Below the pieces are notes generated by a model, which saw only the letters and a program-made list of their open reading frames with translations, ran no database searches and was not told where the DNA came from. DNA of 64,000 bases, from positions 60,407 to 124,406 of the forward strand of contig CAVECL010000001.1 in the NCBI GenBank assembly GCA_963614595.1, given 5' to 3'. This DNA is from Parasutterella excrementihominis (GTDB taxonomy: Bacteria > Bacillota_I > Bacilli_A > RFN20 > CAG-826). Below, piece by piece: positions 8,896-24,453 of this stretch (positions within the stretch are counted from its first letter, which is position 1; each line of letters starts with the position of its first letter). A program made the translations under genes and the position numbers.

Positions 8896-9356
8896 TATTT
8901 TTCCTCGGAGATGTGGACATTGACGACGCCATAGACCTCGCCTTCATCGCCCTTGTAGAGTTCGATTTTCAAACGGGTGTACCCGAAAGCGTTCGCGGGG
9001 TATTTGTCGACGAACTTTCTCTTGTCGAGTTTGATGTTCCATTGCTTCTCCATGCCCTCGACGATCTCTTTGGAGGAGATGGTCCCGATCATGCGGCCAT
9101 TGCTCCCCATCTTCGCCTTGAATTCGACGTTGATGTGCTCAAGGCGCTTCGAAAGCTCCTCGGCCTCTTTCTTGAGCTCTTTTTGGCGGACGGCCTCTTC
9201 GGCGTTGGCTTTTGCGAGCTCTTTTTGGCTATTCGCCGTAGAAGGAACGGCCAAACCTTTGGGGATGAGATAATTGGCCCCATAGCCGTCAGAGACATTC
9301 ACGGTCTCCCCTTTGCGTCCGAGCTTGCGGACGTCAGCAGTTAAAATCACTCTCAT
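8895..9356 (-). CDS. rplI: 50S ribosomal protein L9
   Basis: MRVILTADVRKLGRKGETVNVSDGYGANYLIPKGLA is the canonical L9 N-terminus. Confidence 0.9.
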   Translation of the reverse strand: MRVILTADVRKLGRKGETVNVSDGYGANYLIPKGLAVPSTANSQKELAKANAEEAVRQKELKKEAEELSKRLEHINVEFKAKMGSNGRMIGTISSKEIVEGMEKQWNIKLDKRKFVDKYPANAFGYTRLKIELYKGDEGEVYGVVNVHISEEK

Positions 9357-11422
9357 TCTTTTGCTCCTTGTATATCTGATTTCGCTTCATTGAGATAAGT
9401 GTCTAACGTATCGAGCAAGCGGCTTTCCACCGTGGCAACAGGCAAATCATGGAAGGAGGCAGCCGCCATGCCGAAGTGCCCGCCGCCACCCATCTTCTCG
9501 CAGAGAAGCTGAACGTTAATCGAGCCATCGCTACGCGCGGAGACCTTCGTTTCGTTCGTTCCCGTTCTGCCGATGACGAAGCAGGCGTTGATGCCCTTAA
9601 GTTGCATCAATTGGTTCGCGACTTTGCTGATGGAAGCCTGATCAACGATGTCTTTTTCGTCCGAGACGCAGTAGACAACGCCGGTGTAAGGCGTGCGCAA
9701 GGTCGAAACGATGTTGGTGACCAGGGCATATTCTTCGTATTCGTCTTTGAGGAAGTCATCCGCCAGTTGGTTATCCGCGCCGAACTCTTTCAGAATCTCC
9801 GCGGCTTCGAAGGTTCGGATTCCCGTTGACTTCGACTTGAAGAAGTTGGTATCGAGGAAGATGCCTGAAAGCATCAAAGTCGCATATGTTTGACTGATTT
9901 CAATGCGCGGGTTCGCGGTTGCGTAATGGATGAATTCGGCAAGGATTTCTGAAGTGGAGGAAGCGGACGGGTCGACGTAAGTCAGAACCGGCTTTTCGAC
10001 AAACTGCTCGCCTCTGCGATGGTGGTCGATGACGATGGCCTTCGTCGCTTTTTCAAGGGCTTTTTGTCCCATGACGCGAGACGGGACGGATACGTCAACG
10101 ACGATGAATAAGGTCGAAGGGCGAACGGCATCCGCCGCCTCTTTTGGAGTCAAGGTCATATTGTCCAGCTCTGTTTTGGAGAAGCTTCCCGTGAATGCGT
10201 AACGCGTCTTCTTCTCGGTCAATTTAGGATCGAAGACAATCTTGCAGGGCACTTTGCAGAAGTCGCAGAGGGCTTTGACGCCGAGGCATCCCGCCAAAGC
10301 GTCCATATCCATATCGAGGTGGCCGGAAACGATGACGTTGCTCGCGCCGCGGATAATGCCGATGATGGAATCGGCGACGGAACGGAACTGCACGCGGCCC
10401 GTGTTTTCGATCGCCGCGGTTTTTCCGCCGTAGAATTTAAGGTCCTGCCCATATGTGGACACGACCGCCTGATCGCCGCCGCGGCTCATCGCGATGTCAA
10501 TCGCGTTAGACGCCATATCGTGAAGTTTGGTTACGTCCGGGAAATCGTGAGCCAAGCCCAAGGAAAGGGTTGGAATAACATTTTCCCCTTTGCCCACCGC
10601 GCGGGTTTTTTCTAGCACGGAGAAGCCATCGGCCTCCATTTTCTCAAGAGAAGCGTAATTCGTGACGATGAAATAAGAGTCGCTGCGGAAGCGGCGAAGC
10701 AAGATGCCGAACTCTTTCGCATAATCGAATATCACTCCGCGAACCTTGGTGATGACGTCGTTGTTGTCATCTTCGGCATTGCCGGCGATTTCGGAATAGT
10801 TATCCATCATCAAGATCCCGATGACGGGCGCCTGCTCCTTCGAATAATTGAAGATGGATTCATAATCGCTGGAGTCGCGGAAGATGAATAGATGCGCATC
10901 CGCGAGGTATTTCACGGAATAGGTCTTGCCATTCACTTCGATTTTGACCGTGGTATCCGCCGGAGCGTTTTTGATATCCCTCAAACCCGGTTGCCAATCC
11001 AAGATGTTCATGTCGAGCAAGTCGATGTTTCTTTCTCTGAAGAGGGTGTTGGTCCAAAGAACGACATCGGAATCATCCGTGACCACTAGACCAATCTGAC
11101 CGAATTTGTAGGCTTCCTGAATATCGTTGCCGATGATCGAGGCGGCATCCACGTCGTTTCTCTGGCGGATGCGTCCGATCAAAAGCTCGGAAGTCCACAT
11201 CACCAAAAGATTGAAGACGATCACGGCGGTGAAGGCGATGAACCAATAGTCGATCTTCATGAAGTCGCGGAAACCTTCGGGCCAATCAAGGTAATAAAGC
11301 CCGACCGATCCGCCCAAGAGGACGAGTTCGACAATGATTACGATAAAACTGCCGACTCTGGTGCGGTGCAAAGCGGCGCTAATGGAATTTGATTTGCGGG
11401 GTTTTTGACTGGCCATGGGCAA
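9353..11422 (-). CDS. gdpP: cyclic-di-AMP phosphodiesterase GdpP (YybT): TM-PAS-degenerate GGDEF-DHH/DHHA1
   Basis: Two N-terminal TM helices, a DHH motif (VIDHHRRG), and the DHHA1 GGGH motif (GGGGHFGMAAA). It keeps the conserved position upstream of rplI-dnaB. Confidence 0.85.
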   Translation of the reverse strand: MPMASQKPRKSNSISAALHRTRVGSFIVIIVELVLLGGSVGLYYLDWPEGFRDFMKIDYWFIAFTAVIVFNLLVMWTSELLIGRIRQRNDVDAASIIGNDIQEAYKFGQIGLVVTDDSDVVLWTNTLFRERNIDLLDMNILDWQPGLRDIKNAPADTTVKIEVNGKTYSVKYLADAHLFIFRDSSDYESIFNYSKEQAPVIGILMMDNYSEIAGNAEDDNNDVITKVRGVIFDYAKEFGILLRRFRSDSYFIVTNYASLEKMEADGFSVLEKTRAVGKGENVIPTLSLGLAHDFPDVTKLHDMASNAIDIAMSRGGDQAVVSTYGQDLKFYGGKTAAIENTGRVQFRSVADSIIGIIRGASNVIVSGHLDMDMDALAGCLGVKALCDFCKVPCKIVFDPKLTEKKTRYAFTGSFSKTELDNMTLTPKEAADAVRPSTLFIVVDVSVPSRVMGQKALEKATKAIVIDHHRRGEQFVEKPVLTYVDPSASSTSEILAEFIHYATANPRIEISQTYATLMLSGIFLDTNFFKSKSTGIRTFEAAEILKEFGADNQLADDFLKDEYEEYALVTNIVSTLRTPYTGVVYCVSDEKDIVDQASISKVANQLMQLKGINACFVIGRTGTNETKVSARSDGSINVQLLCEKMGGGGHFGMAAASFHDLPVATVESRLLDTLDTYLNEAKSDIQGAKE

Positions 11423-11506
11423 ATTATAGCCCTAAGGGCTATTCTCTCCTAGGACAAAGAAAAAATAAATCTAGACGGGTAAAAACGGCTGTTTTCGGCA
11501 AGGCAA

Positions 11507-11617
11507 TTATTCGTCGTCGTTTTTGCCTTTGAGGGACAGCAGATAAAAAACCACGGCGATGGTAATCGCCACCACAACGATGGCGACGATGATTCCGATA
11601 AGCGTGGTCGTTGACAT
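11507..11617 (-). CDS. possible 36-aa single-TM micro-protein (MSTTTLIGIIVAIVVVAITIAVVFYLLSLKGKNDDE)
   Basis: ATG...TAA ORF below the 60-aa cutoff of the ORF track. Its 23-residue hydrophobic core looks like a transmembrane helix. Shine-Dalgarno is weak. Confidence 0.25.
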   Translation of the reverse strand: MSTTTLIGIIVAIVVVAITIAVVFYLLSLKGKNDDE

Positions 11618-12261
11618 GCGGAAATGCTACGGCAAAAGAGAGCAAAATAAAAGCCTCTGGATTAGGAGGGGCAATTTGGCGTCGAAGCAGACGCGATTGG
11701 AGATTTTTTTCTTGTCTTCCAGATCCTTTTGGGACTCTTACGAAATCGTTAGCGTCGCTTGTTACCAGAAAAAGGAGATGTCTTCAAAGTTGACGATTAT
11801 GCAGAGAAAAGGCTAAATCATTGACCGATTCCTTGATTGACGCTTTCATGGAAGAATTCCCTCTTCTGTGCTGGCGGAAGGGGAAGAGGCGGAAACTTAC
11901 GCTGACGAATATTACCACGCTTTTGAATATTACGAATCCTTCGTATACGGGAAGTCAGAATAAACCTCAAGAAGCGAAGCCTCCGCCGCCGATTCTGCTT
12001 CCGCAAAAAGAAAACTCTTCTGTCCCAGCCCATGTTCATACCTATCGCGAAGGCTAGACCCACACTGAGGCCAACAAGGAGAATAGATGAACTCGATAAG
12101 AGTTTCCTCGAAGGAAGCGTCTTTTTCTATTCAAAGGTTTGTTTCCTTGCAAAGCAGATCTTAAAAGGGGGGCAACTTTGCGTTTTTGTCAAATTACCCC
12201 CCGTTAACTCGTATCTATGAAAGTCATATTGAGTATAATGAAACCGAGGAGGAATCCGCCT

Positions 12262-13491
12262 ATGCCTTTATTTAAACGGGAAAACTACCTTTCCAAAATC
12301 CGCGATTTCTACCATGTGAACGACCTCATCAAGGTCATCACGGGGGTGAGACGCTCAGGGAAGTCATCAATCATGAGTCTCATCGCCGAGGAGCTTCGCC
12401 TAAAAGGGGTGAAGGAAAGCAACATCTTCTTTCTAAGCCTGGATGCCAAGGGGAATAGAGGCATTAAGACTCCAGACCAGTTGGAACGCCTCATCGATGA
12501 GAAGGTCCATGCGGAGGGGACGAAGTACCTCTTTCTAGATGAGATTCAAAATGTGAATGGATATGAGGAGGTTGTCAACGCCTACCGTGAGGAGGGCGAT
12601 TACTCGATTTTCATCACCGGCAGCAATTCATATCTCCTCAGCGGCGAGCTCATTACGAAGCTCACCGGGCGCTACATCGAGTTTGAGATTTACCCTCTCA
12701 ATTTCGAAGAGTATTTGCAGATGAAGGAATTCTATCATCGCCCCTTGGACCCCAACCTCGCCGTAGAACTTAGGAACTACCTGCAGGAAGGAGGCTTCCC
12801 TGAGACTCTCCTTTTGCCTAGCCTAACCTCAAAGAGGGCTTACGTGAAGGCCCTTGTCGATGAGATTCTAAAGAAAGACATCTACCGTCGGATCAAAATA
12901 AGGAAGCGCGACAGCTTCGACATTGTCATGCACTACCTGATCAACAACTTCGCTAGACCCACGAGCAAGCAAAATATCCTGAAGGGCCTAGAGGAAGGGG
13001 GATTCAAAATCAAAGAATCCACTTTGACAAGATATATCCGCGCCTTAGAGGATGCGAAGGTCCTTTACCCCTGCCTTAACTTCGATCTCAAGTCGAAGCG
13101 TTCCCTAAAAGGAGAGAGAAAATACTATCTTTCCGACCTCTCGTTTACTTTCTTGACCGATCCAAACAGCATCTCCGCCTATGGGCCCTGCCTTGAGAAT
13201 ATCGTCTACGTCTACGCGAGGTCGAAGGGATACGAAACCTACGTCGGCAAGATAGGGAAACTAGAATGCGACTTCGTCCTCCGCGACCCGAATTTGGATT
13301 GCTCTTACGTTCAGGTGGCCTACACGATCCTTGGCGATTCAAAGACCATGGATAGGGAGTACCGTTCTCTCCTTTCTATCAGCGACAACTACCCGAAATA
13401 TCTGTTGACCACCGACTTTTTGTTGCAGAAGAAAGACGGCATAAAACACGAGAACCTTATGGAGTTCATGCGAGAGGGAAGGCTTTTCTAA
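12262..13491 (+). CDS. AAA-family ATPase with DUF4143-type C-terminal domain (COG1373-like)
   Basis: Walker A GVRRSGKSS and Walker B LFLDEIQ. The C-terminal pattern is typical of the 'ATPase AAA + DUF4143' proteins. A GAGGAGG Shine-Dalgarno lies 9 nt upstream of ATG 12262. Confidence 0.8.
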   Translation: MPLFKRENYLSKIRDFYHVNDLIKVITGVRRSGKSSIMSLIAEELRLKGVKESNIFFLSLDAKGNRGIKTPDQLERLIDEKVHAEGTKYLFLDEIQNVNGYEEVVNAYREEGDYSIFITGSNSYLLSGELITKLTGRYIEFEIYPLNFEEYLQMKEFYHRPLDPNLAVELRNYLQEGGFPETLLLPSLTSKRAYVKALVDEILKKDIYRRIKIRKRDSFDIVMHYLINNFARPTSKQNILKGLEEGGFKIKESTLTRYIRALEDAKVLYPCLNFDLKSKRSLKGERKYYLSDLSFTFLTDPNSISAYGPCLENIVYVYARSKGYETYVGKIGKLECDFVLRDPNLDCSYVQVAYTILGDSKTMDREYRSLLSISDNYPKYLLTTDFLLQKKDGIKHENLMEFMREGRLF

Positions 13492-13559
13492 CGGCTTTCT
13501 TTTTTCCCTTCGATTAAAAGTTCCCCAATCAGCCGGACTATAGAACGCCTTGGTCTGAA

Positions 13560-13960
13560 GGCCGCTGTTTGCGCGGGCGGCCAACGGAGCGCTTGGTATT
13601 TTGCTCGTAGCCGTCTTTCGGCTTGGGCTTGCGGCCCCGCTTTTTCGGCTCCGGCTTCGGTACTAGCTAAGACAGCCCGAGCGCCTCCAGCTCCTCGAAG
13701 ACCGTCTTGAGCGTGTGGACCCAGAATCCGTCGCCCGTGGATGGGTCTGACGGCGCGTCGACCCTGCGCCAGGCGGAGGAGAGGTCATCGAGCAGCTCGG
13801 CGTAGGACATCTTGCCCAGAAGGCCGGCCATCCCGGCCTTCCTCAGCATTCTGCATGTGGCCAAGGTCACCACGAAGTTGACGAACTCGCTTCCGATGAC
13901 GGAGAAGTCGCCCTGGACGCCGGTGCGGTCGAGCAACGCGCGCTTTTGTGACCTTGCTTC
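13560..13960 (-). pseudogene. GC-rich (>60%) gene remnant of foreign origin: one open frame interrupted by an in-frame TAG, continuing into a basic AT-hook-like tail (KRGRKPKPK...GRPRKQRP)
   Basis: Abrupt composition shift against ~48% GC surroundings. The minus-strand frame reads ...LLDRTGVQGDFSVIGSEFVNFV...FEELEALGLS*LVPKPEPKKRGRKPKPKDGYEQNTKRSVGRPRKQRPSDQGVL*. There is no start codon and no RBS in the GC-rich part. Confidence 0.45.
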
Positions 13961-14028
13961 TACAAACTGCCTATTTTTTATGTTTTTTTGCTTCTTTTGA
14001 GGCCCCAATATAATCGTGGGTCGTCCAA

Positions 14029-15069
14029 TTAAACTCTGCGAGAACTGCGAATGATTCCCTGTGTTTTTTCGCTGTGGCCGCAATGAACGCATACGCAGTC
14101 ATAGAGATTTTCGATCGAGCTCTCTTCTGTGTCGTACGTTCCGGTGTAATGCTCGTAAATGTCTTCGCTTCCTTTTGCTTCGCCTATGACGTCTCCTCTA
14201 TCGGTGGATATCGTGTAGGTTGTTTCTCTTGTCCCCACTTTCCTCATTCGATCCTCGAACCCGACCCCATCCCACGTGGTTGTTTTACTGCTGATAAGCG
14301 TCTCTTCGCACCTTCCATGGCATTCTGGGCATCTATGGGCGGTTATGGAGCAAAAATCAAAGGCATTGATGACGGCTATTAGGCCTAAAAGAATGCAAGA
14401 ATGGATGTAATAAACCAAAGAAACGCCGAGAAAATCGAGATAGAAATAGGCTAAGGCGAATGCTCCGCCGAGTAAGACCAATGCGGTGAGTTCGAGGTAG
14501 CGGTTCGTCCGCAAAGGTTTGCCGAGGTTAAACATAAAATTGATGAAGATTCCGCCGAGGATCGAGTACATGTAAAGCAAGACGTAATGCATCCATATGT
14601 CGATGGGGTTGAGGATATCGTTGAAGTAATATCCCGCGAAATAGAAAATCGCGGCTAGGTAAAGCAAAACAACTCCCCATTTAACAAACATCAGCGGGGA
14701 AGGCGTTTTGAATTTCTGCACTTTGTATTTTTTACTTGCTTTCTTGAATTTCCGGTCGCTCTTTTCCTTTATTTTGGAGAACAGCAAATCCGACAACACG
14801 ACAAGCAACGCGATAAGCAAAAGGAGGATGAGGAAGGCCGCAAATCCCCCAAGCAAGAAAATTCCAGGGATGCGAAAAATGGCGAGGCCAGCATCTTCCT
14901 GGGACTGGTAAATAAAAAGGGCGATTTGCTGATAAAAAGGGTAGGAATAAAATTTTTGGCTTTGTGAGGTGACGAAATAGAAAAAGGCACTCACTAAAGT
15001 CACCAAGACGGAGATCACCGCTAATCCGCCTGCTAAGATGGCAGCTATTTCATGCCTATGCGCTTTCAT
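14029..15069 (-). CDS. hypothetical polytopic membrane protein with C-terminal cytoplasmic Cys4 zinc-ribbon domain
   Basis: A strong AAGGAGG Shine-Dalgarno 6 nt upstream. About 8 TM helices. The C-terminal region carries CPECHGRC...CVCVHCGH. Confidence 0.7.
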   Translation of the reverse strand: MKAHRHEIAAILAGGLAVISVLVTLVSAFFYFVTSQSQKFYSYPFYQQIALFIYQSQEDAGLAIFRIPGIFLLGGFAAFLILLLLIALLVVLSDLLFSKIKEKSDRKFKKASKKYKVQKFKTPSPLMFVKWGVVLLYLAAIFYFAGYYFNDILNPIDIWMHYVLLYMYSILGGIFINFMFNLGKPLRTNRYLELTALVLLGGAFALAYFYLDFLGVSLVYYIHSCILLGLIAVINAFDFCSITAHRCPECHGRCEETLISSKTTTWDGVGFEDRMRKVGTRETTYTISTDRGDVIGEAKGSEDIYEHYTGTYDTEESSIENLYDCVCVHCGHSEKTQGIIRSSRRV

Positions 15070-15152
15070 AAAACCCCTCCTTATTTATAAATGACCGGTT
15101 CGCCGTCGACGAAACGCCAACTCACAAGAGCAAAATCGGGAGTACACAGCCC

Positions 15153-15383
15153 ATGATACACAACTTCAGAGTGAACCACGCAGACGGCGGCCACGTCGAC
15201 ATGAAATGCCTCGAATGCGGGCATGAGGAGCCCATGCCCCTCGACGTCTTTTCGGAATTGTTCGATCCGTCGCTAGACGAGAACCCGGCGTTCACATGCC
15301 CGCATTGCGACGCGGAATCCTTCGTCCCGAAGGACGTCCACGACCAAATCAAGGGCGGATTCGTCTATAAAGTCGAGAGATAG
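15153..15383 (+). CDS. small zinc-ribbon protein (CxxC...CxxC), 76 aa
   Basis: CLECGH...CPHCDA metal-binding pairs and a GGGAG Shine-Dalgarno-like element upstream. Lies between the membrane/Zn-ribbon gene and the lipoprotein gene. Confidence 0.4.
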   Translation: MIHNFRVNHADGGHVDMKCLECGHEEPMPLDVFSELFDPSLDENPAFTCPHCDAESFVPKDVHDQIKGGFVYKVER

Positions 15384-15560
15384 GGGCCAGAGCGGTGCTC
15401 GTCGGCCGTTTTTTGTGTTCAAACCATCAAATGCAATTTCCTAGTCAACTCAAAAAGGCGGCCTGTAGCAATGGTCCGCCTTATTTGATTCATAAGACCT
15501 TTTGATTACGCTTCCTTAATGGGGGAGCGTATTCATAATAGGCTGCTAAGGAAACCGTTA

Positions 15561-17429
15561 TTAGGCTGCTTTAACCGTGATTCCCGGCCTGACGCAATAC
15601 CCTTCATAATTGACTGCCGACGTATAAGCAATATAGCCATAGGGGTCGACTTTATTAGCCGAATACGAACTGTGCGCATCTGGCGAACGCGTCCAATAAT
15701 AGCCATTCCGATAGTTGGCGTTTTGACCGGTCTCGATTATCGCTCCACTTGCTATAGCGTAGTCCGTGACCTTGGAACCCAACGAGAATTTGGCGGTTTT
15801 GTAGTCTTGGGCGCTTAAAAGATAGACATAATCATTCGTGCCGCCGGAAGCGTATTCATTTGTTGTCCACCAAGTCGTTTTGGCCGAATTGTCCACATAG
15901 ACTTTTTGCAGCTTAGGAGTGATTGGGAAGGCTAAAGATCTGAAATCGCCAGTGAGCCATTTTCTGATCCCCGATTTTTCATAATTATTCGCGTAGTACC
16001 CATTTTTCTTATCACTATAGTTTTCGTTGTATATATGCGTATCGAGAAGCATCCTTGAAACGAGCGAATATTGATTCCCGTCGGATGATGTAACGGTCCA
16101 TTCGATGGGTTCAACCTTGAACCAATATGAGGTGCCGCTTGAGATCTTCGTCCCGTCGTCGAAGGTATAGCGGCTGTTAAAGGGTTTCGCGGTTTTCTTC
16201 GCGTAGTAGCTGCCGTCTAAGAGATACCAGCCATTTCCCTCGGGGGAAGTCAAAGCGTCCAAGGAGGCCAGCAACGAAGAATCGGAAACATAGCTTTGAG
16301 GATATTGCCCATAAAGCACAGAATCGACGCTGACGCTCGAAGAGTCTTCGACATCGGCAGAATAGCCGCAGACACTGCAAACCTTCGTCACCTCGTTAGA
16401 CGAGTTCAAATCCAATATGTTCCTGAAAGCGTGGTCGCTTTTCTCGACTTTCTCGTCGCATTCAGAGCAAGAGTACCAGTGGCTCGTCGCGTCGCTTGTA
16501 TAAGAATCATTCAAGGTATGGCCATGGGGCAAGGTCAACGTCTCGGCCCCGGCGCTGATCTCATAGGTAAAGGTATAAGTCGTGACGTTGTTATACGCAT
16601 CCTTATCGAAAGAGTATCTCACCATCTTGGTAACCTTCCCATCCTCGAAAAAAATAGACCAGCTTTCTATGATGTCACCCTTCGGATTGACGTTGTAACC
16701 GCAATCAACTTCATCATAATCACGATAAGTGTTGGCAACGCTAAGCCGAGAGTTGAAGAAATAAGCGTTCAGGTCAAAGGGGTTGAATTGATCGATCTTC
16801 TTGCCGGTGTCCTCGCCCTTTGTCCAATATGATTCGTCTTCGCTGTCTTTGCTGGTTGTCTTGGAATAGACATAATACTTCGCGTCGCTATCTTGGCCTG
16901 ATTTGGTGTAATAGTATTCGCGCGTGTTTCCGTCGCCCTTCCTCTTTGAGTAGACGATGTCTCCGTTTTTGACGTAGATATCATCATCCTCGATGAGTGT
17001 GACGCCGGTGCTTTTGTAATAGACATCCGCCTTGTAAGTCAAAGTGAAATCGCCTTCGAACTTAAAAGCGTTATCCCAGTCTTCATCGCTGACGCCCGTG
17101 GTGTAGCTGACTTCGTCTTTGACATAGCGGCAGTAGGCGCATCTATAGCCCTTCGTCCCGGCCTCCTTTTCCGTGGCTTTCTTGATCACATCCTTGTGGT
17201 CTCCGAAAGTGTGGGCTTCCACCTTCTTCTCGCCGCAAGAGCATTCTCTCCAATGGTTGTTCTCGTCGCTCTGATAGTTCCCGAAAGAATGGACGTGCGC
17301 GCTAGAAGAGCCAGAGGAAGTCGGCTTTTCCTCGGATGAAGTGCCTCCCTGGAGGCTGCAAGAGCCCAACGCCATCGTTAGAAGCGTCGAAACGCCTAGC
17401 CCGAACAAGATGCTGTGTTTTGTTTTCAT
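15561..17429 (-). CDS. large secreted lipoprotein with duplicated His/Cys motif modules and a C-terminal YWTRSP...GVRPxIT domain
   Basis: Signal peptide plus lipobox (LALGSC|S). Two repeats of H-x-H-x11-HW-x2-C-x-C...H-x-F followed by C-x2-C (AHVHSFGNYQSDENNHWRECSCGE / PHGHTLNDSYTSDATSHWYSCSEC). Ser/Asp/Tyr-rich beta-type middle region. AAGGAG Shine-Dalgarno upstream. Confidence 0.7.
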   Translation of the reverse strand: MKTKHSILFGLGVSTLLTMALGSCSLQGGTSSEEKPTSSGSSSAHVHSFGNYQSDENNHWRECSCGEKKVEAHTFGDHKDVIKKATEKEAGTKGYRCAYCRYVKDEVSYTTGVSDEDWDNAFKFEGDFTLTYKADVYYKSTGVTLIEDDDIYVKNGDIVYSKRKGDGNTREYYYTKSGQDSDAKYYVYSKTTSKDSEDESYWTKGEDTGKKIDQFNPFDLNAYFFNSRLSVANTYRDYDEVDCGYNVNPKGDIIESWSIFFEDGKVTKMVRYSFDKDAYNNVTTYTFTYEISAGAETLTLPHGHTLNDSYTSDATSHWYSCSECDEKVEKSDHAFRNILDLNSSNEVTKVCSVCGYSADVEDSSSVSVDSVLYGQYPQSYVSDSSLLASLDALTSPEGNGWYLLDGSYYAKKTAKPFNSRYTFDDGTKISSGTSYWFKVEPIEWTVTSSDGNQYSLVSRMLLDTHIYNENYSDKKNGYYANNYEKSGIRKWLTGDFRSLAFPITPKLQKVYVDNSAKTTWWTTNEYASGGTNDYVYLLSAQDYKTAKFSLGSKVTDYAIASGAIIETGQNANYRNGYYWTRSPDAHSSYSANKVDPYGYIAYTSAVNYEGYCVRPGITVKAA

Positions 17430-17792
17430 GTTTCCTTATTCCTTACTCCTTATTTATGCGGAATGGAAAAAGGTTAGGCCAGGAAGCGCTAAAAAAGTGC
17501 CAAAGACCCAGCGGGTTTTTGAAAAAGAAAACATCATCGTTTCGCTTCAAAGACATGGACGCGAATTGAATGAAGACGATGATGGCTGTTTCGTCTAGAC
17601 GCCTAGGCGCGTTCATGGATGTCGGATCCTTGAAGAAGACGCTCTAAGAAGAATAAGGGAGGACGTTCGCGCCTAGTCCCCTCTGCATAAGTGTAATGAG
17701 TCCCCAATAAGAGAGGAGCTCCCTAAAGCATTTCCCGCTTTAAAGGGTGCTTCGTCCATAAAGCCCGGCAAGAGAAGCGGCGGCGAGGAAAA

Positions 17793-18584
17793 TCAACGGG
17801 TCAAGCCTTTCCGCTCGGCGATGATATCAAGCTCCATCTGGTAGTCCAACGCCCATTCGTAGCTCTTGCAGAAAACCCCGCTGTAATTGCCTTCTCCCGT
17901 CTTGAGGAAATCCCAGTAATCGCAATGAATGCGGCTTTTAAGGAGAGTGAGTTGGGCCCTAGAGAAGCTCACGCAGCTGAAGTTGTATTCGCTTAGGGTC
18001 CTCCTTAGCCGCCACACCGCGTCGCGGTAGAGCCTCTTGGCGTTGTCCAAAGGGACGTCCGGCCAAAGTTGGGAGATCGCATCGCTCATCTCGAGGATTT
18101 TGCCATTATAGGCAATCAGCAAAGCGAAGAGCTCCTTGGATTTCGCGCTGGAGAAGCGGATGGCCTCCCCCTCGAGGAAACAATCGAAGCTATTGAACAT
18201 CTTCACCTCCATGTAGGAGCAGCTGTCACTGATCAAATCGATGTATTGCTTCACGCTTAAGAAGGTATAGGGCTTGTAGATGAAACCGAGGACGCTTGAT
18301 TTTATCTCTGAAGGCAAGTCCTTTTCCGTCATTTTGATCCCGGTCACGAAGACGATCTTCATCCCCGGATGGATGTGGAGGATCTTTTTGACGAGGTCGA
18401 TCCCGTTTATCCCCGGCATATTGATGTCAATGAAAGAGGCGCTCACCTCATTATGATTCACGTAATCCAGAATCTGCTTCTCGTCGTCTTTGAAAAATCT
18501 GCATTCCAGGTTGTCCAAAGAGACGATCTCCTTCAGGAATATCTGCAAAGAGGAGATCTCGTCGTCCACCGCAATCACTTTCAT
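17793..18584 (-). CDS. response regulator: receiver domain with a C-terminal winged-helix-like (OmpR/trans_reg_C-like) output; not LytTR or AraC
   Basis: MKVIAVDDE...D(IN)MPG(IN)G receiver signature. The C-terminus has a KELFALL...VW...RLRRTL pattern. Its start codon lies 2 nt after the kinase stop. Confidence 0.75.
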   Translation of the reverse strand: MKVIAVDDEISSLQIFLKEIVSLDNLECRFFKDDEKQILDYVNHNEVSASFIDINMPGINGIDLVKKILHIHPGMKIVFVTGIKMTEKDLPSEIKSSVLGFIYKPYTFLSVKQYIDLISDSCSYMEVKMFNSFDCFLEGEAIRFSSAKSKELFALLIAYNGKILEMSDAISQLWPDVPLDNAKRLYRDAVWRLRRTLSEYNFSCVSFSRAQLTLLKSRIHCDYWDFLKTGEGNYSGVFCKSYEWALDYQMELDIIAERKGLTR

Positions 18585-18585
18585 A

Positions 18586-20565
18586 TCAGGCCTTCCTTTC
18601 CTTGGGGAGAGTTATCTTCACCTTCGTTCCCTCATTAATCCCGCTTTTCACTTCCACCTTGGCGTTGAGCAGCAAAGCGAACCTCTCCCGCGCGTTCTTG
18701 ATGCCTGAGGAATTCTCTTTGACCTGCTTCGAGTCGAAGCCGACTCCGTTGTCGCTGATTTCCACATAGATTGAGGTTTCGTCCTGGTAGGTCGATATCT
18801 CGATGCGCCCGCCTTCTTTCTCGTTCACCTTGCTGTATTTGATCGCGTTCTCGACGAAGGGCTCGATCGAGAGGACGGGCACTTCGAAGTCTTGGACGTC
18901 GATGTCGTAGAGGACTTCGAATCGCTTCTCCGTCCTTAGGTTTTTAAGCTCCACGAAATTATAGACGTTGTCGAGCTCCTTCTCGAAGGAAATGAGGTTC
19001 GAGGCGGAGACGTCGACGGCGTAGCGGAGGTAATCGGCGAGCAAAGACACCGCCCGGTCGCCCGTCCCTTCGTCTTGGTGGTAGAGGGCCTTGATCGTCC
19101 CCAGGCAATTGAAGACGAAATGGGGCTTGATCTGGTCGCGCAGGACCAAAAGCCTCAAATCCTTGTTCTGCAGCTCGGACTTCAGCTCGTTCATCGCGTG
19201 GCGGTAGGTCCTCACGATGAAGGCGACGTAAATCGCAAGGAACAAAACGATGACGAGGAAAAGATAGGCCAGCAATATCTTGGATGAGGAGAGAGGGAAG
19301 AGACTAGAACAAGAAGAGACGATGCATAGTTCCATCCCCAGGACGGAATAGAAGACGCATTTGGTGAAAACCCCCGTAATGTCGAGCTGATTCTTGAGCT
19401 TGGAGAAGTAGCTGATCTTGATTAGCAGATAGATATATACGAGAGCGTAAACCCCATAAGCGACAATCGGCAGCCTCAAGGGGATCAAAGAGGCGTAAAG
19501 AATGGTGGCAAGCCCCGCGAAAGCCACCCCCAGTGCAACCAGTTTTGTTGGGAGCTTCGATCGATAGGTGTATTGAAAGAACTGGAGGATGGAAAGAAGG
19601 AAGAGGCAGAAGAAAAGGAACCCGATAATCCCGAAAATGAAGGGGGGCAAGTAACAGCCGAAACTCATAAGGATGGAATTCATCAGGGGCGAGAAGAGCG
19701 CCATAAAGAAGAGGGATCCCGCCATGTTCACCGTGTAGATCGTGGAGTCGTAGATCCTGAAATAAGAGACGAGTTCCACCACGAATAAAGCCAAGTAGCA
19801 GACGAGGACGATATAAGAGAGCGAAGTAACCACGTTTTGCTCCGAATCATGGTAGGAGACGTTATAGAACTTCGGCGCGAAGGAGAGTCCTCCCACGAAG
19901 TTATATCCTACTTCGATGATCACATTAGCCTTCCCGCTTTTCTTTGCTTCATAGACCTCATCGGTTTGGTAGGAAAAGCCCGGGGAGCTTTCGGAGAAAC
20001 TCTTCCCCACCGTTCCTGCCCCGGCGATTTTCTCTCCTTCGACATAGACGGCGAAGGCGACGTCGACAGGCTCTTTTTTGAAAGTGATCTTCGTTCCAGC
20101 GGAAAGCTCGATTTGGGTGAGATAAGAAGCATATCCATAGAAAGGGAGGCTGCCACCGCTTTTCTCCTTTACCCCAAACCAGGTATGGGGCAAAGCGATC
20201 TCTGAATCAGGCTCCCTTTTCGATAGGTCGACCTGATCGCTCACTAGAAGCGTGTTGTAGTAAAGCCCATAAACACCAGTCGAGCTCTTTATGATCGTCT
20301 CTTCTTCGCTCGGGCGAGCGTTATCCGCAAAGGAGGAAATTAGAGCTGAAAAAGCCCCTCCAGCGAAAAGGAGGGCGTAAAGAGTGATGCGCAGAATTAT
20401 GGATGTGAGCTTAGCCGGGCTCTTCGATGGTCCGCCTTTCCTTTTCCCGAGCTTAGCAGCGTTAGCCTCCTCAAGCTCGCCGTTGCTCGTTTTGGGAAAT
20501 GCCCTTTTCATAGGATAATTATACCAAAAAACATCGATGAAATATACGTTTTCCGCGTATACCAT
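18586..20565 (-). CDS. sensor histidine kinase with 7TM-receptor architecture: ~200-aa extracellular domain, 7 TM helices, His_kinase (LytS/YesM-type), HATPase_c
   Basis: FVFNCLGTIKAL (H-box region of PF06580-type kinases) and ENAIKYS...ISDNGVGF (N and G1 boxes). One TM helix precedes the extracellular domain and 7 TM helices follow it. AGGAAA Shine-Dalgarno 7 nt upstream of ATG 20565. Confidence 0.8.
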   Translation of the reverse strand: MVYAENVYFIDVFWYNYPMKRAFPKTSNGELEEANAAKLGKRKGGPSKSPAKLTSIILRITLYALLFAGGAFSALISSFADNARPSEEETIIKSSTGVYGLYYNTLLVSDQVDLSKREPDSEIALPHTWFGVKEKSGGSLPFYGYASYLTQIELSAGTKITFKKEPVDVAFAVYVEGEKIAGAGTVGKSFSESSPGFSYQTDEVYEAKKSGKANVIIEVGYNFVGGLSFAPKFYNVSYHDSEQNVVTSLSYIVLVCYLALFVVELVSYFRIYDSTIYTVNMAGSLFFMALFSPLMNSILMSFGCYLPPFIFGIIGFLFFCLFLLSILQFFQYTYRSKLPTKLVALGVAFAGLATILYASLIPLRLPIVAYGVYALVYIYLLIKISYFSKLKNQLDITGVFTKCVFYSVLGMELCIVSSCSSLFPLSSSKILLAYLFLVIVLFLAIYVAFIVRTYRHAMNELKSELQNKDLRLLVLRDQIKPHFVFNCLGTIKALYHQDEGTGDRAVSLLADYLRYAVDVSASNLISFEKELDNVYNFVELKNLRTEKRFEVLYDIDVQDFEVPVLSIEPFVENAIKYSKVNEKEGGRIEISTYQDETSIYVEISDNGVGFDSKQVKENSSGIKNARERFALLLNAKVEVKSGINEGTKVKITLPKERKA

Positions 20566-20630
20566 ACCGATGTTTCCTGCTATTTCAAGAACGGGTTAAA
20601 GGCTCGTTATGGGGCTCGTTTCTGAGCCCG

Positions 20631-20669
20631 CAAAAGAAAAAAGACCCATCTGTTCGGGATAGGTCTTTT
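20631..20669 (-). terminator. Rho-independent terminator of the rpsF-ssb-rpsR operon
   Basis: On the minus strand AGACCUAUC-CCGAACA-GAUGGGUCU forms a 9-bp stem and is followed by UUUUUCUUUU. Confidence 0.6.
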
Positions 20670-20756
20670 CTGTCTAAGATTATCGAATCGTCGCGCGGAC
20701 GCCGTCTCTGTGCGATTCAGCGACGTTAGGTCCCTGCGACCACAAATTGGCTAATC

Positions 20757-20981
20757 TTACTTAACGTCAGGCAGAAGGCCCATGAAACGAGCTTTCTTGA
20801 TGGCGCTAGCAAGCTGGCGCTGGTACTTCGCGCTGGTGCCGGTGATGGCACGAGGAAGAATCTTACCGTCAGCACCGATGAATCTGCCGAGCAATTCGGC
20901 ATCCTTGTAATCGATGTAGTCGATGTGGTTCTTCGTGAAATAGCAGGCCTTCCTGCGGGAACGCATCTTGCGGAATGGCAT
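20757..20981 (-). CDS. rpsR: 30S ribosomal protein S18
   Basis: [19 protein letters not shown]...LPDVK is canonical S18. Confidence 0.92.
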
Positions 20982-21006
20982 TTTCTAATTTCCTTTCTAC
21001 GAGAAT

Positions 21007-21465
21007 TTAGAAGGGGAGATCGTCATCGACGACGTCGATGCCGTCCAGGTTCTTGTTCTCGTTTTGGGGATTAACCTGCGGAGCGGGCTCCGATGAGCCC
21101 ATATCCGGGGCATATCCCGAATTGCTGCCTGCGCTGCGCGAAGCATCCTTGGGGTCAAGGAATTCGACAGCTGAGGCGGAGACTTCCGTGGCAGTCACTT
21201 CGACATTGTCACGGCGAGTGTACTTACGTTGCGTTAAACGCCCATTGACGGCGACCAAAGAACCTTTGCGAGTGAACTTGGCGACGTTATCGGCGGACTT
21301 CCCCCACACCGAGATCGGCATGAAGATCGTCACTTTTTCTCCGTTAGGCCCGCGATAAGAATCATCGACGGCGAGGGTGAAGGAAGCCACGCTCATCCCT
21401 GAGCTGGTCTTACGGAGTTCGGGGTCGCGCGTAAGGCGACCAACGAGTACGACACAATTGATCAT
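21007..21465 (-). CDS. ssb: single-stranded DNA-binding protein
   Basis: MINCVVLVGRLTRDPELRKT OB-fold N-terminus. Gly/Ser/Asn-rich tail ending in the acidic DDDLPF. Confidence 0.92.
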   Translation of the reverse strand: MINCVVLVGRLTRDPELRKTSSGMSVASFTLAVDDSYRGPNGEKVTIFMPISVWGKSADNVAKFTRKGSLVAVNGRLTQRKYTRRDNVEVTATEVSASAVEFLDPKDASRSAGSNSGYAPDMGSSEPAPQVNPQNENKNLDGIDVVDDDLPF

Positions 21466-21488
21466 TTCTTGAATCCTCCTGATCTTAG

Positions 21489-21776
21489 TTATTTGTGTTC
21501 GACAGTAACTAGATGACGGATGACGTTGGAATCAAGTTTGACAAGGCGATCAAATTCTTTGAGCGCCGCGGGTTCCGCAGTCACTTTGATGACCACATAG
21601 TAACCTTTGGTGTTGTTTTTGATCGGGCTAGCAAAATCTTTGACGCCCCATTCTTTGACATCGTTGACGGTCGCTTTCTGAGCGGTCAGGATGCCATGGA
21701 GCTTCTCGATCTCGGCCTTACGGGCGTTCTCATCAAGAGTCGCGGTAAGGATGTACATGATTTCGTACTTTCCCAT
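21489..21776 (-). CDS. rpsF: 30S ribosomal protein S6
   Basis: MGKYEIMYIL... is the S6 N-terminus. AGGAGG Shine-Dalgarno 9 nt upstream. The longer six-frame ORF reaching 21899 is an upstream in-frame extension. Confidence 0.9.
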   Translation of the reverse strand: MGKYEIMYILTATLDENARKAEIEKLHGILTAQKATVNDVKEWGVKDFASPIKNNTKGYYVVIKVTAEPAALKEFDRLVKLDSNVIRHLVTVEHK

Positions 21777-22019: not shown

Positions 22020-22718
22020 TTACCTTTTGAAGCCAAGACGGATGAAGAACGAGGCGGACGAAAAAACATAAACATTGTCTTCCTCGCCAAAGGAAACGGG
22101 GATTTCCTGCCCAAGAGGAATCTCTTTTTTGTAAGCAACTTCTAGCAAAGAGGGTTCATGAGTTTGTAGGAAGCCCATGGGAATCAGATCCTCCGCTTCA
22201 TCCAAATATGCCGTGTTGTTCATGTGACCATTTAGGTCGCAATCCCTCCATTTCGCCGCAAAAGTGGCTTTTTTTGTTAATTCGAAGCCCTTAAACGGGA
22301 ATTGGAAGCCGACTTCATCGCCTTCCGATTTGCCGTCAATCACGATTCCATGCGCCTCAGGATCGATCATCGAACGGCTCTTCTCATCGATGAGAGTCCA
22401 GGCTGCGCTAGAAGAAACAAGCAATTCGCCCGAAGAGGAATAGATCTTGCAATGGCGAGGAAACAAGAAAGGAATTCTTTCGCCGGGATAAGCAACGATT
22501 TGAACAGACTCGTCATATTCGGGTAGGCGGTTGATGACCAATCTTTGTTTGCCGATAACCCAAAGCAGCCCCCTATCCAAGGTTTTCTCTCGCGGGTAGC
22601 CCAGATTTTCAGTGTCTTCAATTGAAATCTCCTGAAGAAATTTCAAAAGGGAGGAAAGGCGAAGCTTCCTAGTGGGGTCACAATGCTCCGTGAGAATTTT
22701 TATGCTTTTCGATAGCAT
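22020..22718 (-). CDS. acyl-[acyl-carrier-protein] thioesterase (tandem hotdog fold, FatA/B-like, PF01643-type)
   Basis: Length 232 aa. The second hotdog carries DCDLNGHMNNTAYLD, matching the D-x-D-x-N-x-H-V-N-N catalytic signature of acyl-ACP thioesterases. Confidence 0.7.
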   Translation of the reverse strand: MLSKSIKILTEHCDPTRKLRLSSLLKFLQEISIEDTENLGYPREKTLDRGLLWVIGKQRLVINRLPEYDESVQIVAYPGERIPFLFPRHCKIYSSSGELLVSSSAAWTLIDEKSRSMIDPEAHGIVIDGKSEGDEVGFQFPFKGFELTKKATFAAKWRDCDLNGHMNNTAYLDEAEDLIPMGFLQTHEPSLLEVAYKKEIPLGQEIPVSFGEEDNVYVFSSASFFIRLGFKR

Positions 22719-22721
22719 GGG

Positions 22722-22976
22722 TCACTTCTTTTTGGCCAAGCGGAACGAAATCTCGTCAACCAGCGCGGAAAAAGTGGAAAGCTTGGCCCATTTATTTTGG
22801 GGGATTTTTATATCAAAGGCGGACTCGATTTGAGTCATGAGATAAATAAAGGACATTGAGTCAACGCTAGCATCGGTGTTGATGTTGGAAGACTCATTGA
22901 TTTCAACCCCGTCTAAATCCGGCACGCTGCTATGAATAATGCCGATGGCTTTTTCTTTGATCTCTTCGCGGGTCAT
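22722..22976 (-). CDS. acyl carrier protein (dedicated ACP)
   Basis: 84 aa, acidic, with the phosphopantetheine-attachment motif DLDGVE...DASVDSMSFIYL (DSM in place of DSL). Confidence 0.65.
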   Translation of the reverse strand: MTREEIKEKAIGIIHSSVPDLDGVEINESSNINTDASVDSMSFIYLMTQIESAFDIKIPQNKWAKLSTFSALVDEISFRLAKKK

Positions 22977-22995
22977 AGGTTACTCCTTATCTAGT

Positions 22996-24339
22996 TTATA
23001 TCATCTTTTGCAAAGCCCAACGCTTTATTTTCCCTGTTTGGGTGCGCGGCAAAGGCCCAGGGAAATAAAGCACAACCGCAATGCGATTTGAGTAAGGGAC
23101 GGTTTCATTGAAAGCGGTTATAGAAGAGGAATAGTTGTCCTGCAAGGTGGCTTTGCCAAAAGCCAGGACTATTTGCTCCTTGCTGTTTTTCGCAATTGCA
23201 AAATCCTTGTCGCCCCCCAGGAAAGCGGCGAGCTTGCTTTCGTATTCAGGGCAATAGATCTTGGTTCCGTCATCCAAAACGAGAATGTCCTTTTTCCGCC
23301 CTTTGATATGGAGAAGCCCTTCGGAATCGAAATATCCTAAATCGCCCGTAGAAAGAATTCCGTCATGAAGCACTTCTTTTGTGGAAGCATCATCTTTGTA
23401 ATAGCCGTTCATCAAAACGGATTTGCAGTCCAGCAAAATCTCACCATCTGAGTTAAGAGCCACCTTAACGTCAGGGCAAATCGACATGGCCCGCGGGTCT
23501 TTGCCAATCGATAGAGCAACCCCGGAACTCGTTTCCGTTAAGCCATATCCAAAGCAAACTCGTATGCCCTGACTTGAAATCAATTGAAGAACGGAGTCAG
23601 AACAGTCGCCCGCGCCGATAAGAACCAATTTCAATTCAGGATTAAATAAATGTTTTGAGGCAAAGAAAGCCGCCATTTGGGGAACTAAGCTTACCGTGGT
23701 TGGCTTGTAATAGGCAAAATCCCCAAACATTTGTTTAATCCCGCGGCTTAAAGCGACGCAGGCGCCGCAAGAAAGACCCCAAAGTAAGGAGCACACAAAG
23801 CCAAATACGTGGTTGAAGGGCAAGCAAGAATAAAGAACGTCATCCGGGGAAAGGGGCAGTAAAGAAGCTCCATTATAAGCGGACGAACATAAGCTCGCTT
23901 CGCTTAGGCAAACAGCTTTATTGCTGCTCGTCGTGCCCGAAGTAAAAAACAAAATCTTCCCATCCTGCGCTGCTTCTTTGGTGACTAAGGAATCCTCCAG
24001 CGCGTCCTTGAGCTCACGCGGTCCAAGAATAAAATTCACATCGGCGGCTTTGACTTTGCCTTTTAGAGAGTCAAGATCTTCAGAAGGAGAAAGCAGAGCA
24101 ATCTGTCTACGTTTCGAGGCATAGGCGAAGACAGCTAAGATGGATGATAAACTCCCATCCATCAAAATCCCCGCAGTTCCCGTTTCTTTTATGGGGAATG
24201 CATAGATTTTGCGGATTAATTCCGCATAAGTGAGATATTTTTTAACGCCGTTCTCTTCATAAATCAAAGCATGGGAATCCTGCTTTTGGTCAAGCAGCAT
24301 AGCCAAGAATGAAGAATAGCGTTTCCTTAATCCGCCCAT
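22996..24339 (-). CDS. short AMP-dependent ligase (ANL superfamily; acyl-AMP ligase / acyl-ACP synthetase-like)
   Basis: A3 core FFTSGTTSSNKAV, A5 GYGLTETS, A7/A8 STGDLGYFDSEGLLHIKGRKKD, and A10 lysine PRTQTGKIKR. At 447 aa it is shorter than typical acyl-CoA synthetases. Confidence 0.75.
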   Translation of the reverse strand: MGGLRKRYSSFLAMLLDQKQDSHALIYEENGVKKYLTYAELIRKIYAFPIKETGTAGILMDGSLSSILAVFAYASKRRQIALLSPSEDLDSLKGKVKAADVNFILGPRELKDALEDSLVTKEAAQDGKILFFTSGTTSSNKAVCLSEASLCSSAYNGASLLPLSPDDVLYSCLPFNHVFGFVCSLLWGLSCGACVALSRGIKQMFGDFAYYKPTTVSLVPQMAAFFASKHLFNPELKLVLIGAGDCSDSVLQLISSQGIRVCFGYGLTETSSGVALSIGKDPRAMSICPDVKVALNSDGEILLDCKSVLMNGYYKDDASTKEVLHDGILSTGDLGYFDSEGLLHIKGRKKDILVLDDGTKIYCPEYESKLAAFLGGDKDFAIAKNSKEQIVLAFGKATLQDNYSSSITAFNETVPYSNRIAVVLYFPGPLPRTQTGKIKRWALQKMI

Positions 24340-24453
24340 AGAACAATGATATTCGAATTGATATCGCCATATCGGTAATATTATCCCGTTTTACTTTTAT
24401 TCTTTGAATAATGTCTTAAAATAAGACCAAATCTAAAAAGGAGACCATGATAA

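Follow-up and report, generated by a model that had tools for sequence, protein, structure and literature searches.

The DNA analyzed here (hereafter the window) is a 64,000-nucleotide stretch of assembly GCA_963614595.1, listed as Parasutterella excrementihominis (GTDB lineage Bacteria; Bacillota_I; Bacilli_A; RFN20; CAG-826), and our subject is the interval that separates rpsR from gdpP within it. On one side of this interval lie, on the minus strand, dnaB (7429-8895), rplI (8895-9356) and gdpP (9353-11422), and on the other side rpsR (20757-20981), with ssb and rpsF beyond it. From gdpP toward rpsR the interval holds an ATPase gene, a transposase scar, genes for a membrane protein (memZn) and a small zinc-ribbon protein (Zn76), a lipoprotein gene, and the genes for a response regulator and a histidine kinase. 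Open reading frames (ORFs) were annotated by ORF listing and by Pfam and NCBIfam scans, which recovered every gene listed in an earlier, sequence-only reading of the window. The 570-bp non-coding stretch described in that reading is instead an interval of about 800 bp between gdpP and the ATPase gene, and yybS, whose position this stretch was said to occupy, was found in no relative.

Relatives were collected by a GdpP-anchored scan of species-representative genomes, which returned 43 loci, and the window proteins were compared with relatives by tblastn. The loci, cited below by L numbers, all come from metagenome-assembled genomes (MAGs) of uncultured gut and rumen Bacilli that are Enteromonas- or RF39-like, several of them labelled Candidatus Enteromonas. 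Across the set, the gap between rpsR and gdpP is either about 100-700 bp, so that the genes are adjacent, or else unrelated cargo fills it over a length of 1.8 to more than 10 kb. Distant relatives, with GdpP 44-56% identical, have the two genes essentially side by side. Among the closer relatives the gap measures 307 bp in L007, 680 bp in L009, 1.8-1.9 kb in L006, L008, L039 and L040, and 3.8-7.1 kb in L002, L003, L010 and L011; it exceeds lengths of 4.6 to 10 kb in L001, L004, L005, L015, L017 and L018, where rpsR was not reached. The cargo is diverse: IS21 IstA/IstB and a Flg_new/DUF6273 surface protein in L001, a MATE pump and an SLFN_AlbA_2 protein in L003, an Endonuclease_1 protein in L008, large lipoproteins in L004, L010 and L011, and a sugar ABC transporter with glycosidases in L017. 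IS256-like (L005) and IS110-like (L013) transposases were also recognized in the cargo, judged by reading ORF translations alone.

The same flanks therefore enclose differing cargo, with empty and near-empty sites included, and in this clade of gut Bacilli the spacer that runs from the rpsR terminator to gdpP and the micro-ORF beside it acts as a hotspot of gene flux. One state of the hotspot is seen in the window interval, gap size and cargo varying among the closer relatives. Neither the kinase, the regulator, the lipoprotein, memZn nor Zn76 was found beside gdpP by tblastn in any of the 43 relatives. The synteny of these loci bears out the sequence-only reading in its central point, that an accessory, lineage-specific insertion splits a block that is contiguous in many relatives; the same genes in a conserved core arrangement, which that reading had named as evidence to the contrary, were found at the site in none of the 43. 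Integration hotspots and flexible genomic islets between core genes are a general feature of bacterial pangenome organisation, but we know of no earlier description of one between rpsR and gdpP in RF39/Enteromonas-like Bacilli. Like other flexible genomic islets, this one has fixed core flanks, cargo that differs from species to species, surface, insertion sequence (IS) and defence-like genes, and no need of a dedicated integrase; unlike them, it is known here from MAG contigs only.

The insertion had been placed at 11423-20756. The island does lie inside these limits, but about 250 bp on the left (the micro-ORF and the gdpP promoter region) and about 125 bp on the right (the rpsR terminator) are core. 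The conserved right border of the hotspot is the rpsR 3' flank (20633-20756, minus strand), in which a rho-independent terminator (hairpin and T-run, ~20669-20632) can be read. The homology of relatives on this side restarts at 20633 or 20594 (L065, L044, L040), for L065 exactly at the terminator end, 20632, while on the gdpP side homology with L009 and L001-L004 stops at 11629-11676. Breakpoints across relatives thus cluster at 11629-11676 and 20632-20746, and as judged from them the island proper spans approximately 11677-20632 (~8.96 kb), bounded by the rpsR terminator on one side and on the other by a micro-ORF that goes with gdpP. Its leftmost part, 5' of the ATPase gene (11677-12216), is non-coding DNA with a GC content of 0.45 that is common only to L054 and holds no ORF with a family match.

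Two further assemblies reproduce parts of the arrangement. L044 repeats the order rpsR-kinase-regulator, with the kinase and flanking proteins identical and the regulator 99.6% identical in amino acid sequence, and L054, which belongs to the same species as the window, covers rpsR through the ATPase gene at 99.4% nucleotide identity.

The recombinase, flanking att-type repeats and tRNA or tmRNA insertion site of a classical integrative genomic island were looked for and not found. No recombinase domain was detected in any intact island ORF with Pfam, NCBIfam or PHROGs; no flanking repeats of at least 14 nt with matching positions were found at the island, and no repeat of at least 35 nt anywhere in the window. 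No tRNA gene was found beside the island, and an Rfam scan of 11000-21500 at E ≤ 1 gave sub-threshold chance matches only. The sole RNA gene detected in the window is that for tmRNA (1769-2172, minus strand; tag peptide DNKTVKPWMLGASHRASAALA), which no island adjoins. The claim that no recombinase is present holds for intact genes, but two transposon scars, the 3' fragment of a DDE_Tnp_1 gene and an IS91-type ORF with its terminal sequence, mark junctions between units. These scars are also the compositional exceptions: the GC and third-position GC (GC3) of the island genes lie within the host range except for the DDE scar (GC 0.60) and Zn76 (0.56), and the tetranucleotide distance of the island falls in the upper tail without being extreme (4 of 56-59 tiles are equally distant). 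Such composition fits exchange among congeners together with foreign IS DNA better than the recent arrival of the entire block by long-distance transfer. The horizontal acquisition proposed earlier is upheld insofar as the DNA is accessory, but apart from the two scars its composition shows little sign of a distant origin.

The rpsR side of the island is occupied by three minus-strand genes. The sensor histidine kinase gene (18586-20565) matches His_kinase (PF06580, E = 2.8e-16) and HATPase_c (E = 1.8e-8) in Pfam, and hydropathy places one transmembrane (TM) helix at the N-terminus of its product, followed by an extracytoplasmic domain of ~170 aa and about seven more TM helices ahead of the two catalytic domains. 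The true start is likely the ATG at 20511 (641 aa) rather than 20565, because an extended -10 element (TGGTATAAT) lies 6 nt upstream of it. The response regulator gene (17793-18584), whose start overlaps the kinase stop, encodes a REC domain (Response_reg, E = 2.4e-13) and a putative, divergent OmpR/SARP-like winged-helix domain at the C-terminus; Trans_reg_C matches the C-terminal half at E = 0.013, NCBIfam alignments to RprY/PhoB (OmpR class) reach residue ~200, and a sequence search of the PDB matched the REC domain only. With His_kinase, HATPase_c and Response_reg domains on neighbouring genes, the pair is a two-component system, and its motifs can be read directly: PHFVFN (H-box), ENAIKY (N-box) and DNGVGF (G-box) in the kinase, and the acidic pocket DD...D(INMP)...K in the regulator. 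The pair has a promoter-like element of its own after the rpsR terminator.

The third gene encodes a 622-aa surface lipoprotein (15561-17429): behind a signal peptide with a lipobox come two modules with His/Cys motifs, a middle domain rich in beta structure and, at the C-terminus, DUF6273 (E = 9.4e-14). The kinase with its seven-helix block, the regulator and the lipoprotein all match their earlier description, and the sensing and surface content proposed for the interval is real. Homologues of the lipoprotein are 78-95% identical, and relatives at the domain level are fusions with Flg_new or cohesin surface modules. Structure prediction, suggested in the sequence-only reading, was applied to the lipoprotein and to memZn and added little. 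The AlphaFold2 (AF2) model of the lipoprotein has a predicted local distance difference test score (pLDDT) of 72 overall and ~90 in the DUF6273 part; a fold search gave a weak LolA-like match for the middle domain only (E = 4e-4, TM score 0.38 to the target) and no confident match for the whole protein, the DUF6273 part not being searched alone. A sequence search of the PDB with the lipoprotein found no match.

The trio also occurs by itself. In L062, a different species, it stands in the same order (kinase 88%, regulator 92% and lipoprotein 78% identical in amino acid sequence), with neither Zn76 nor memZn; homology stops at the lipoprotein terminator, beyond which lies a different ATPase of the same candidate defence family (PDC-S01, see below), only 26% identical. 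Adjacency of kinase and regulator is kept in nine distant metagenome loci, and full-length regulator homologues always adjoin kinase homologues, while adjacency of the lipoprotein to the pair is conserved within the genus only. A metagenome scan with the kinase returned kinase-regulator pairs 26-45% identical with unrelated neighbours; it pointed to no donor lineage, and the regulator was the only conserved partner.

In mechanistic terms, the multi-TM kinase probably phosphorylates the putative winged-helix regulator, which would most likely control the adjacent lipoprotein. We regard it as a tentative reading, with slightly less than even standing, that the trio senses a surface cue and thereby controls a lectin-like lipoprotein; the reading is suggested by the kinase and REC motifs, the promoter-like element, the conserved adjacency, and the description of DUF6273 as a C-type-lectin-like fold (PMC10743442). 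If so, the trio constitutes a testable host- or glycan-sensing module. DUF6273 domains are also found in phage receptor-binding proteins, as targets of diversity-generating retroelements, and in gut-bacterial surface enzymes (PMC10743442, PMC12402451); as there, the domain sits at the C-terminus of a secreted or surface multidomain protein, but the window protein has a lipoprotein anchor and goes with a two-component system instead of a phage tail. A diversity-generating retroelement, which the domain brought to mind, was rejected: the island ORFs contain no reverse transcriptase domain, and with no repeat of the length given above there is no template/variable pair in the window.

The kinase resembles, we presume, the multi-TM sensors of the LytS/YesM class (PF06580), for example those with a 7TMR-DISM-type architecture, although Pfam detects neither 7TMR-DISM nor any other sensor domain in it. 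It shares with that class the His_kinase and HATPase_c core, the N-terminal TM helix with extracytoplasmic domain and ~7-TM block, and an adjacent response regulator with overlapping stop and start. Typical partners of LytS/YesM-class kinases carry LytTR or AraC outputs, unlike the window regulator with its putative, divergent OmpR/SARP-like winged helix.

Beyond the lipoprotein gene lies the remnant of an IS91-family (Y2/HUH) element (15143-15448, plus strand). In it the Zn76 accessory ORF is followed by a hairpin with a T-run and, at 15434-15448, by the terminal motif CAATTTCCTAGTCAA, but a transposase gene is missing. Zn76 (15153-15383, plus strand), a 76-aa zinc ribbon with two CxxC motifs, has six homologue clusters. 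In L066-L068 the homologues begin at the stop codon of a 448-aa transposase with Zn_Tnp_IS91 and Y2_Tnp domains, in L069-L070 at the stop of a 199-aa ORF with HTH_38 and Y2_Tnp domains, and in L071 and L072 they overlap, in the same manner, an upstream ORF of no family on record. A tblastn search with the L066 transposase found no Y2 HUH transposase in the window, L054 or L065. The terminal motif, …TCAAAT(A/G)NAATTTCCTA(G/T/A)TCAA (in consensus TCAAAT(A/G)NAATTT(C/T)CT..TCA(A)), recurs together with the hairpin and T-run in the window, L054, L065, L066-L068, L069-L071 and L072, and flanking sequences part directly after it, both between L066 and L067 and between the window and L065. A subterminal hairpin and conservation up to the junction with the flank are features of the ori-type end of IS91-family elements, and the remnant shows both. 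The small zinc-ribbon protein noted earlier is thus present as an ORF on the plus strand, but it is the accessory ORF of an IS91-family element, lying with its terminal sequence and without its transposase.

The ori-type end lies, in all the independent contexts seen, directly against a rho-independent terminator (its A-run and hairpin) that serves a convergent gene: at 15434-15460 in the window, 3367-3400 in L065, 2244-2290 in L066, 1685-1730 in L067, ~470-520 in L072, and 3' of the zinc-ribbon ORF in L069-L071. The genes whose terminators adjoin these ends include those for the lipoprotein, rpsR and enolase, among others, which hints that the IS91-like element prefers terminators as targets. 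In L069 (491-4543) an element with Zn76-family and Y2_Tnp genes stands beside a cluster of SMODS, SLATT_4, NspV and MqsA-like/HTH genes, an apparent defence island; to judge from its gene content, this element is a second link between the Zn76-type IS group and variable defence regions.

In IS91, transposition is one-ended, starting at oriIS and ending at terIS; in 1-10% of events the stop at terIS fails and neighbouring DNA is mobilised (PMC13181058). The remnant resembles the IS91/ISCR rolling-circle elements of that account in several respects: homologues of its zinc-ribbon ORF are coupled to Y2_Tnp genes; it lacks inverted repeats, and its single distinct end carries a subterminal hairpin; the new junction is made by the ori-type end; and chromosomal DNA appears to be captured on the side of the transposase 5' end (terIS). 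It differs from IS91 in the place of the accessory ORF: the zinc-ribbon ORF follows tnpA, its start overlapped by the tnpA stop, whereas orf121 of IS91 precedes tnpA. Further differences from the IS91/ISCR elements are that the window holds no transposase, that the end abuts a terminator A-run and not a CTTG or GTTC tetranucleotide, and that the element is known from sequence alone.

The gene next to this remnant, memZn (14029-15069, minus strand), encodes a protein of 346 aa in which six TM helices are predicted, with a conserved, Cys-rich beta domain at the C-terminus. The memZn family comprises 13 homologue clusters (42-98% identity) with invariant CxxC...C and CxxC motifs and is restricted to the genus. 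It has no Pfam, PDB or fold match: a search with the structural model (pLDDT 65), which shows the six helices and a long beta-hairpin domain, returned nothing below E = 0.001. We had likened the beta-hairpin to the stems of pore toxins, a resemblance that the fold search did not find significant.

As a rule memZn follows an LRR_5 (BspA-like) gene as its downstream partner, and in the window a remnant of such a gene survives as its last 9 codons and stop (15081-15110, minus strand; from the alignment of L054 8780-10020 with window 15040-15200). L054 keeps LRR_5 between Zn76 and memZn, where the window has lost 1.1 kb between two 12-bp imperfect repeats, TTGGCGTTTCGT and TTGGCATTACGT. LRR_5-memZn also occurs at another locus, in L055-L058 (memZn 87% identical), L059-L061 (56%) and L064 (64%), where the order is PRT173-LRR5-memZn-(ATPase429)-ABC/FtsX. 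L059 and L040 lie on different contigs of one MAG, and the rpsR-gdpP gap of L040 is taken up by other genes. Between L055 and L059 the flanking phosphoribosyltransferase shares 98% identity, LRR_5 and memZn only 52-55%; by this comparison the pair is evolving far faster than its neighbours, as expected of exposed surface proteins. An ATPase gene stands convergent to memZn at both loci, and a conserved pairing of the two was considered and rejected, the ATPases being 22% identical and L064 carrying LRR_5-memZn without an ATPase.

In L065 the rpsR terminator is joined straight to the IS91-type end, followed by Zn76, the LRR_5 remnant and a memZn remnant, with no two-component system. This locus lacks exactly window positions 15449-20632 (5.18 kb), and the two alignments overlap by 12 bp at the junction.

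These arrangements raise the possibility that the LRR_5-memZn pair was carried into the spacer by one-ended IS91 transposition, since memZn lies on the transposase-5' side of the IS remnant and the ori-type end is where the remnant joins the new site. The match to the donor locus of LRR_5-memZn begins in the spacer between PRT173 and LRR_5, 10 bp from the Zn76 start. We hold this capture model only tentatively; its main alternative is that an IS-mediated inversion or recombination moved the pair. Somewhat more doubtful still is the combined proposal that the zinc-ribbon ORF marks an undescribed IS91-family subgroup of uncultured gut Bacilli, in which it is translationally coupled downstream of a Y2 transposase, with an ori-type end that inserts against a terminator T-run, and that one-ended transposition of such an element brought LRR_5-memZn into the rpsR-gdpP spacer. 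If true, it would mean that IS91-type gene capture acts on ordinary chromosomal genes, not resistance genes. The putative subgroup, with its downstream zinc-ribbon ORF and apparent terminator targeting, is among the most original by-products of the analysis, and it is testable.

Between memZn and the ATPase gene is the second scar, the 3' remnant of a DDE_Tnp_1 transposase gene (13541-14008, minus strand, by tblastn; ~120-140 codons with an AT-hook tail). An in-frame TAG precedes the AT-hook-like tail, and GC is ~0.59 over ~13500-14000. An exhaustive HMMER search with a 98-aa ORF fragment of the scar returned 221 homologues; the full-length ones (513-687 aa) align at residues ~370-530, several carry DDE_Tnp_1, and one has AT-hooks. 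The GC-rich scar of a foreign gene in the earlier description can accordingly be named as a DDE transposase 3' end. L054 lacks 96 bp of it (window ~13828-13923), and L065 retains ~100 bp beside memZn and then runs into ATPase429.

The ATPase gene itself (12217-13491, plus strand; relatives' gene calls start at 12262) combines AAA_14 and DUF4143 domains in Pfam and matches the PADLOC model PDC-S01 (PDLC04787) at E = 4.8e-132 over residues 16-420, near full length. The Walker A (GKS) and Walker B (DE(I/W)Q) motifs are invariant in the alignment, so that both the hidden Markov model and the P-loop place it in this family. A PDB sequence search with the ATPase found no match. The earlier statement that the gene set matches no named defence system is wrong for this gene, although PDC-S01 is an unvalidated candidate: it is a very abundant candidate single-gene defence family in which an ATPase is fused to a PD-(D/E)xK-superfamily domain, no assay of it has been reported, and most PDCs await experimental validation (PMC12988326, PMC13356809). 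The window ATPase agrees with the PADLOC family in its AAA_14 and DUF4143 architecture, intact Walker motifs and location in a variable region. It differs in its C-terminal motif, which reads ExD...QxA in the window, L062 and L051, as opposed to ExD...ExK in the ATPase429 subfamily. PDC-S01 thus seems to hold subfamilies with and without the canonical nuclease lysine, and the window copy offers a further natural context for this abundant candidate family.

L009 keeps the last 219 bp of a window-type ATPase gene, colinear with gdpP, and the junction of scar and ATPase recurs in another assembly (P0071) at 78-90% amino acid identity. The ATPases themselves turn over, because the one beside memZn at the other locus is different (22% identity), L064 has none and L009 has a remnant; from such comparisons, PDC-S01-type ATPases are gained, replaced and eroded at sites of this kind.

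Taken together, these results make it quite probable that the interval is a mosaic accessory island, built stepwise at the hotspot and caught in a species-specific state, and not one functional system. Turnover mediated by insertion sequences and by microhomology would assemble such an island step by step. One unit would be the self-contained two-component module with its own promoter, and a second the right end of an IS91-family rolling-circle element that has presumably lost its transposase; memZn would be the surviving half of an LRR_5-memZn pair, and the DDE transposase stump and the PDC-S01 ATPase would be further units. Deletions between short repeats (~12 bp) would then trim the island. 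Three indels between very close relatives have repeats of 5-12 bp at their edges (window 15109-15120 versus L054 8842-9949, window ~13828-13923 versus L054, and window 15449-20632 versus L065), which suggests that microhomology-mediated deletion is a major eroder of accessory DNA in these small genomes.

Several points weigh against the mosaic reading or its parts. More than one order of events fits: L065 may have arisen by deletion from a window-like state, or the two-component module may have been inserted later. One-ended IS91 capture needs a later, precise loss of ~1.4 kb (transposase and terIS) that ends 10 bp before Zn76. PDC-S01 is a candidate family, and the window copy is without the canonical ExK. 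The regulator's output domain is weakly matched (the Trans_reg_C score given above), and the sole argument for control of the lipoprotein is that two species keep the genes adjacent. The relatives are all MAG contigs, which mostly do not show where else in a genome the modules lie.

Of the other explanations, the one that survives best makes the PDC-S01 ATPase the centre of a small anti-phage defence island to which the remaining genes are accessory, and it is improbable. The strength of the PADLOC match speaks for it, as do the SLFN_AlbA_2 and nuclease genes among other hotspot occupants and the SMODS/SLATT genes beside the L069 element, but only one of the seven proteins matches any PADLOC model, PHROGs gave no structural, integration or defence matches, PDC-S01 is only a candidate (PMC12988326), and the two-component system, lipoprotein and memZn show features of surface proteins and signalling.

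Still less probable is the view taken in the sequence-only reading, that the whole interval is one horizontally acquired, co-functional sensing or surface system. In its favour, all of the genes are absent from the site in the 43 relatives and the full set recurs in L054; L054, however, is the same species and not an independent occurrence. The interval is not a single module because its units occur apart and segregate independently: the trio alone in L062, Zn76 with LRR_5 and memZn remnants in L065, LRR_5-memZn elsewhere in L055-L061 and L064, and an ATPase remnant in L009. A joint occurrence of ATPase, membrane protein, lipoprotein and two-component system, proposed as a check on the module, was found in L054; in the loci of other species just named the parts are separate. 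Transposon scars stand exactly at the junctions, gene orientations are mixed and terminators lie between units.

That the arrangement is ancestral core, lost by the relatives, is slightly less credible again. The L009 remnant, at the same position, does imply that the ATPase at least predates the split from L009, and the scar-ATPase junction is shared with P0071, but rpsR adjoins gdpP in distant relatives, nearer ones carry unrelated cargo, LRR_5-memZn has a different conserved locus in three species groups, and IS scars mark the junctions as secondary. A chimeric assembly can be set aside, because L044 (rpsR-kinase-regulator) and L054 (rpsR through ATPase) independently reproduce the junctions and the colinear L009 remnant backs the left one between ATPase and gdpP, even though all data come from MAGs and the L054 contig breaks inside the interval, at window position 11487.

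The locus shows uncultured gut Bacilli with reduced genomes diversifying their surface and sensing repertoire through one intergenic spacer behind the rpsF-ssb-rpsR operon, a spacer in which lipoproteins, a two-component system, candidate defence genes and insertion sequences are gained, exchanged and worn away. As a feature it is of an ordinary kind, though some of its details are new, and it does not overturn current understanding.

The left border of the hotspot is a conserved micro-ORF (11507-11617, minus strand) that encodes 36 aa with a single TM helix (MSTTTLIGIIVAIVVVAITIAVVFYLLSLKGKNDDE). In an alignment of the region upstream of gdpP in 11 genomes it is kept in nine of the ten relatives (L006 is N-masked there), down to 77% GdpP identity, and it varies mostly at third codon positions, as with synonymous changes. 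We assign it to the core, with gdpP, because of this conservation and pattern of change. A conserved element ending in TATAAT lies directly 5' of gdpP in the same alignment. The micro-ORF sits where other Firmicutes carry yybS, and its product may be a small membrane partner of GdpP; it, too, is among the most original by-products of the analysis. A -10-like hexamer stands exactly 6 nt 5' of three minus-strand ATGs, those of gdpP at 11416 (TATAAT), the micro-ORF at 11617 (TAGCAT) and the second in-frame ATG of the kinase at 20511 (the extended element given above), a spacing that suggests leaderless mRNAs in this lineage.

Upstream of rpsF (22020-25908), the window carries genes for an acyl-ACP thioesterase, an acyl carrier protein, an AMP-binding ligase and a divergent amine-oxidase-type flavoprotein. 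This cluster is common to L003, L007, L009, L040 and L065, with identities of 55-100% depending on the gene, the flavoprotein changing far more slowly than the other three.

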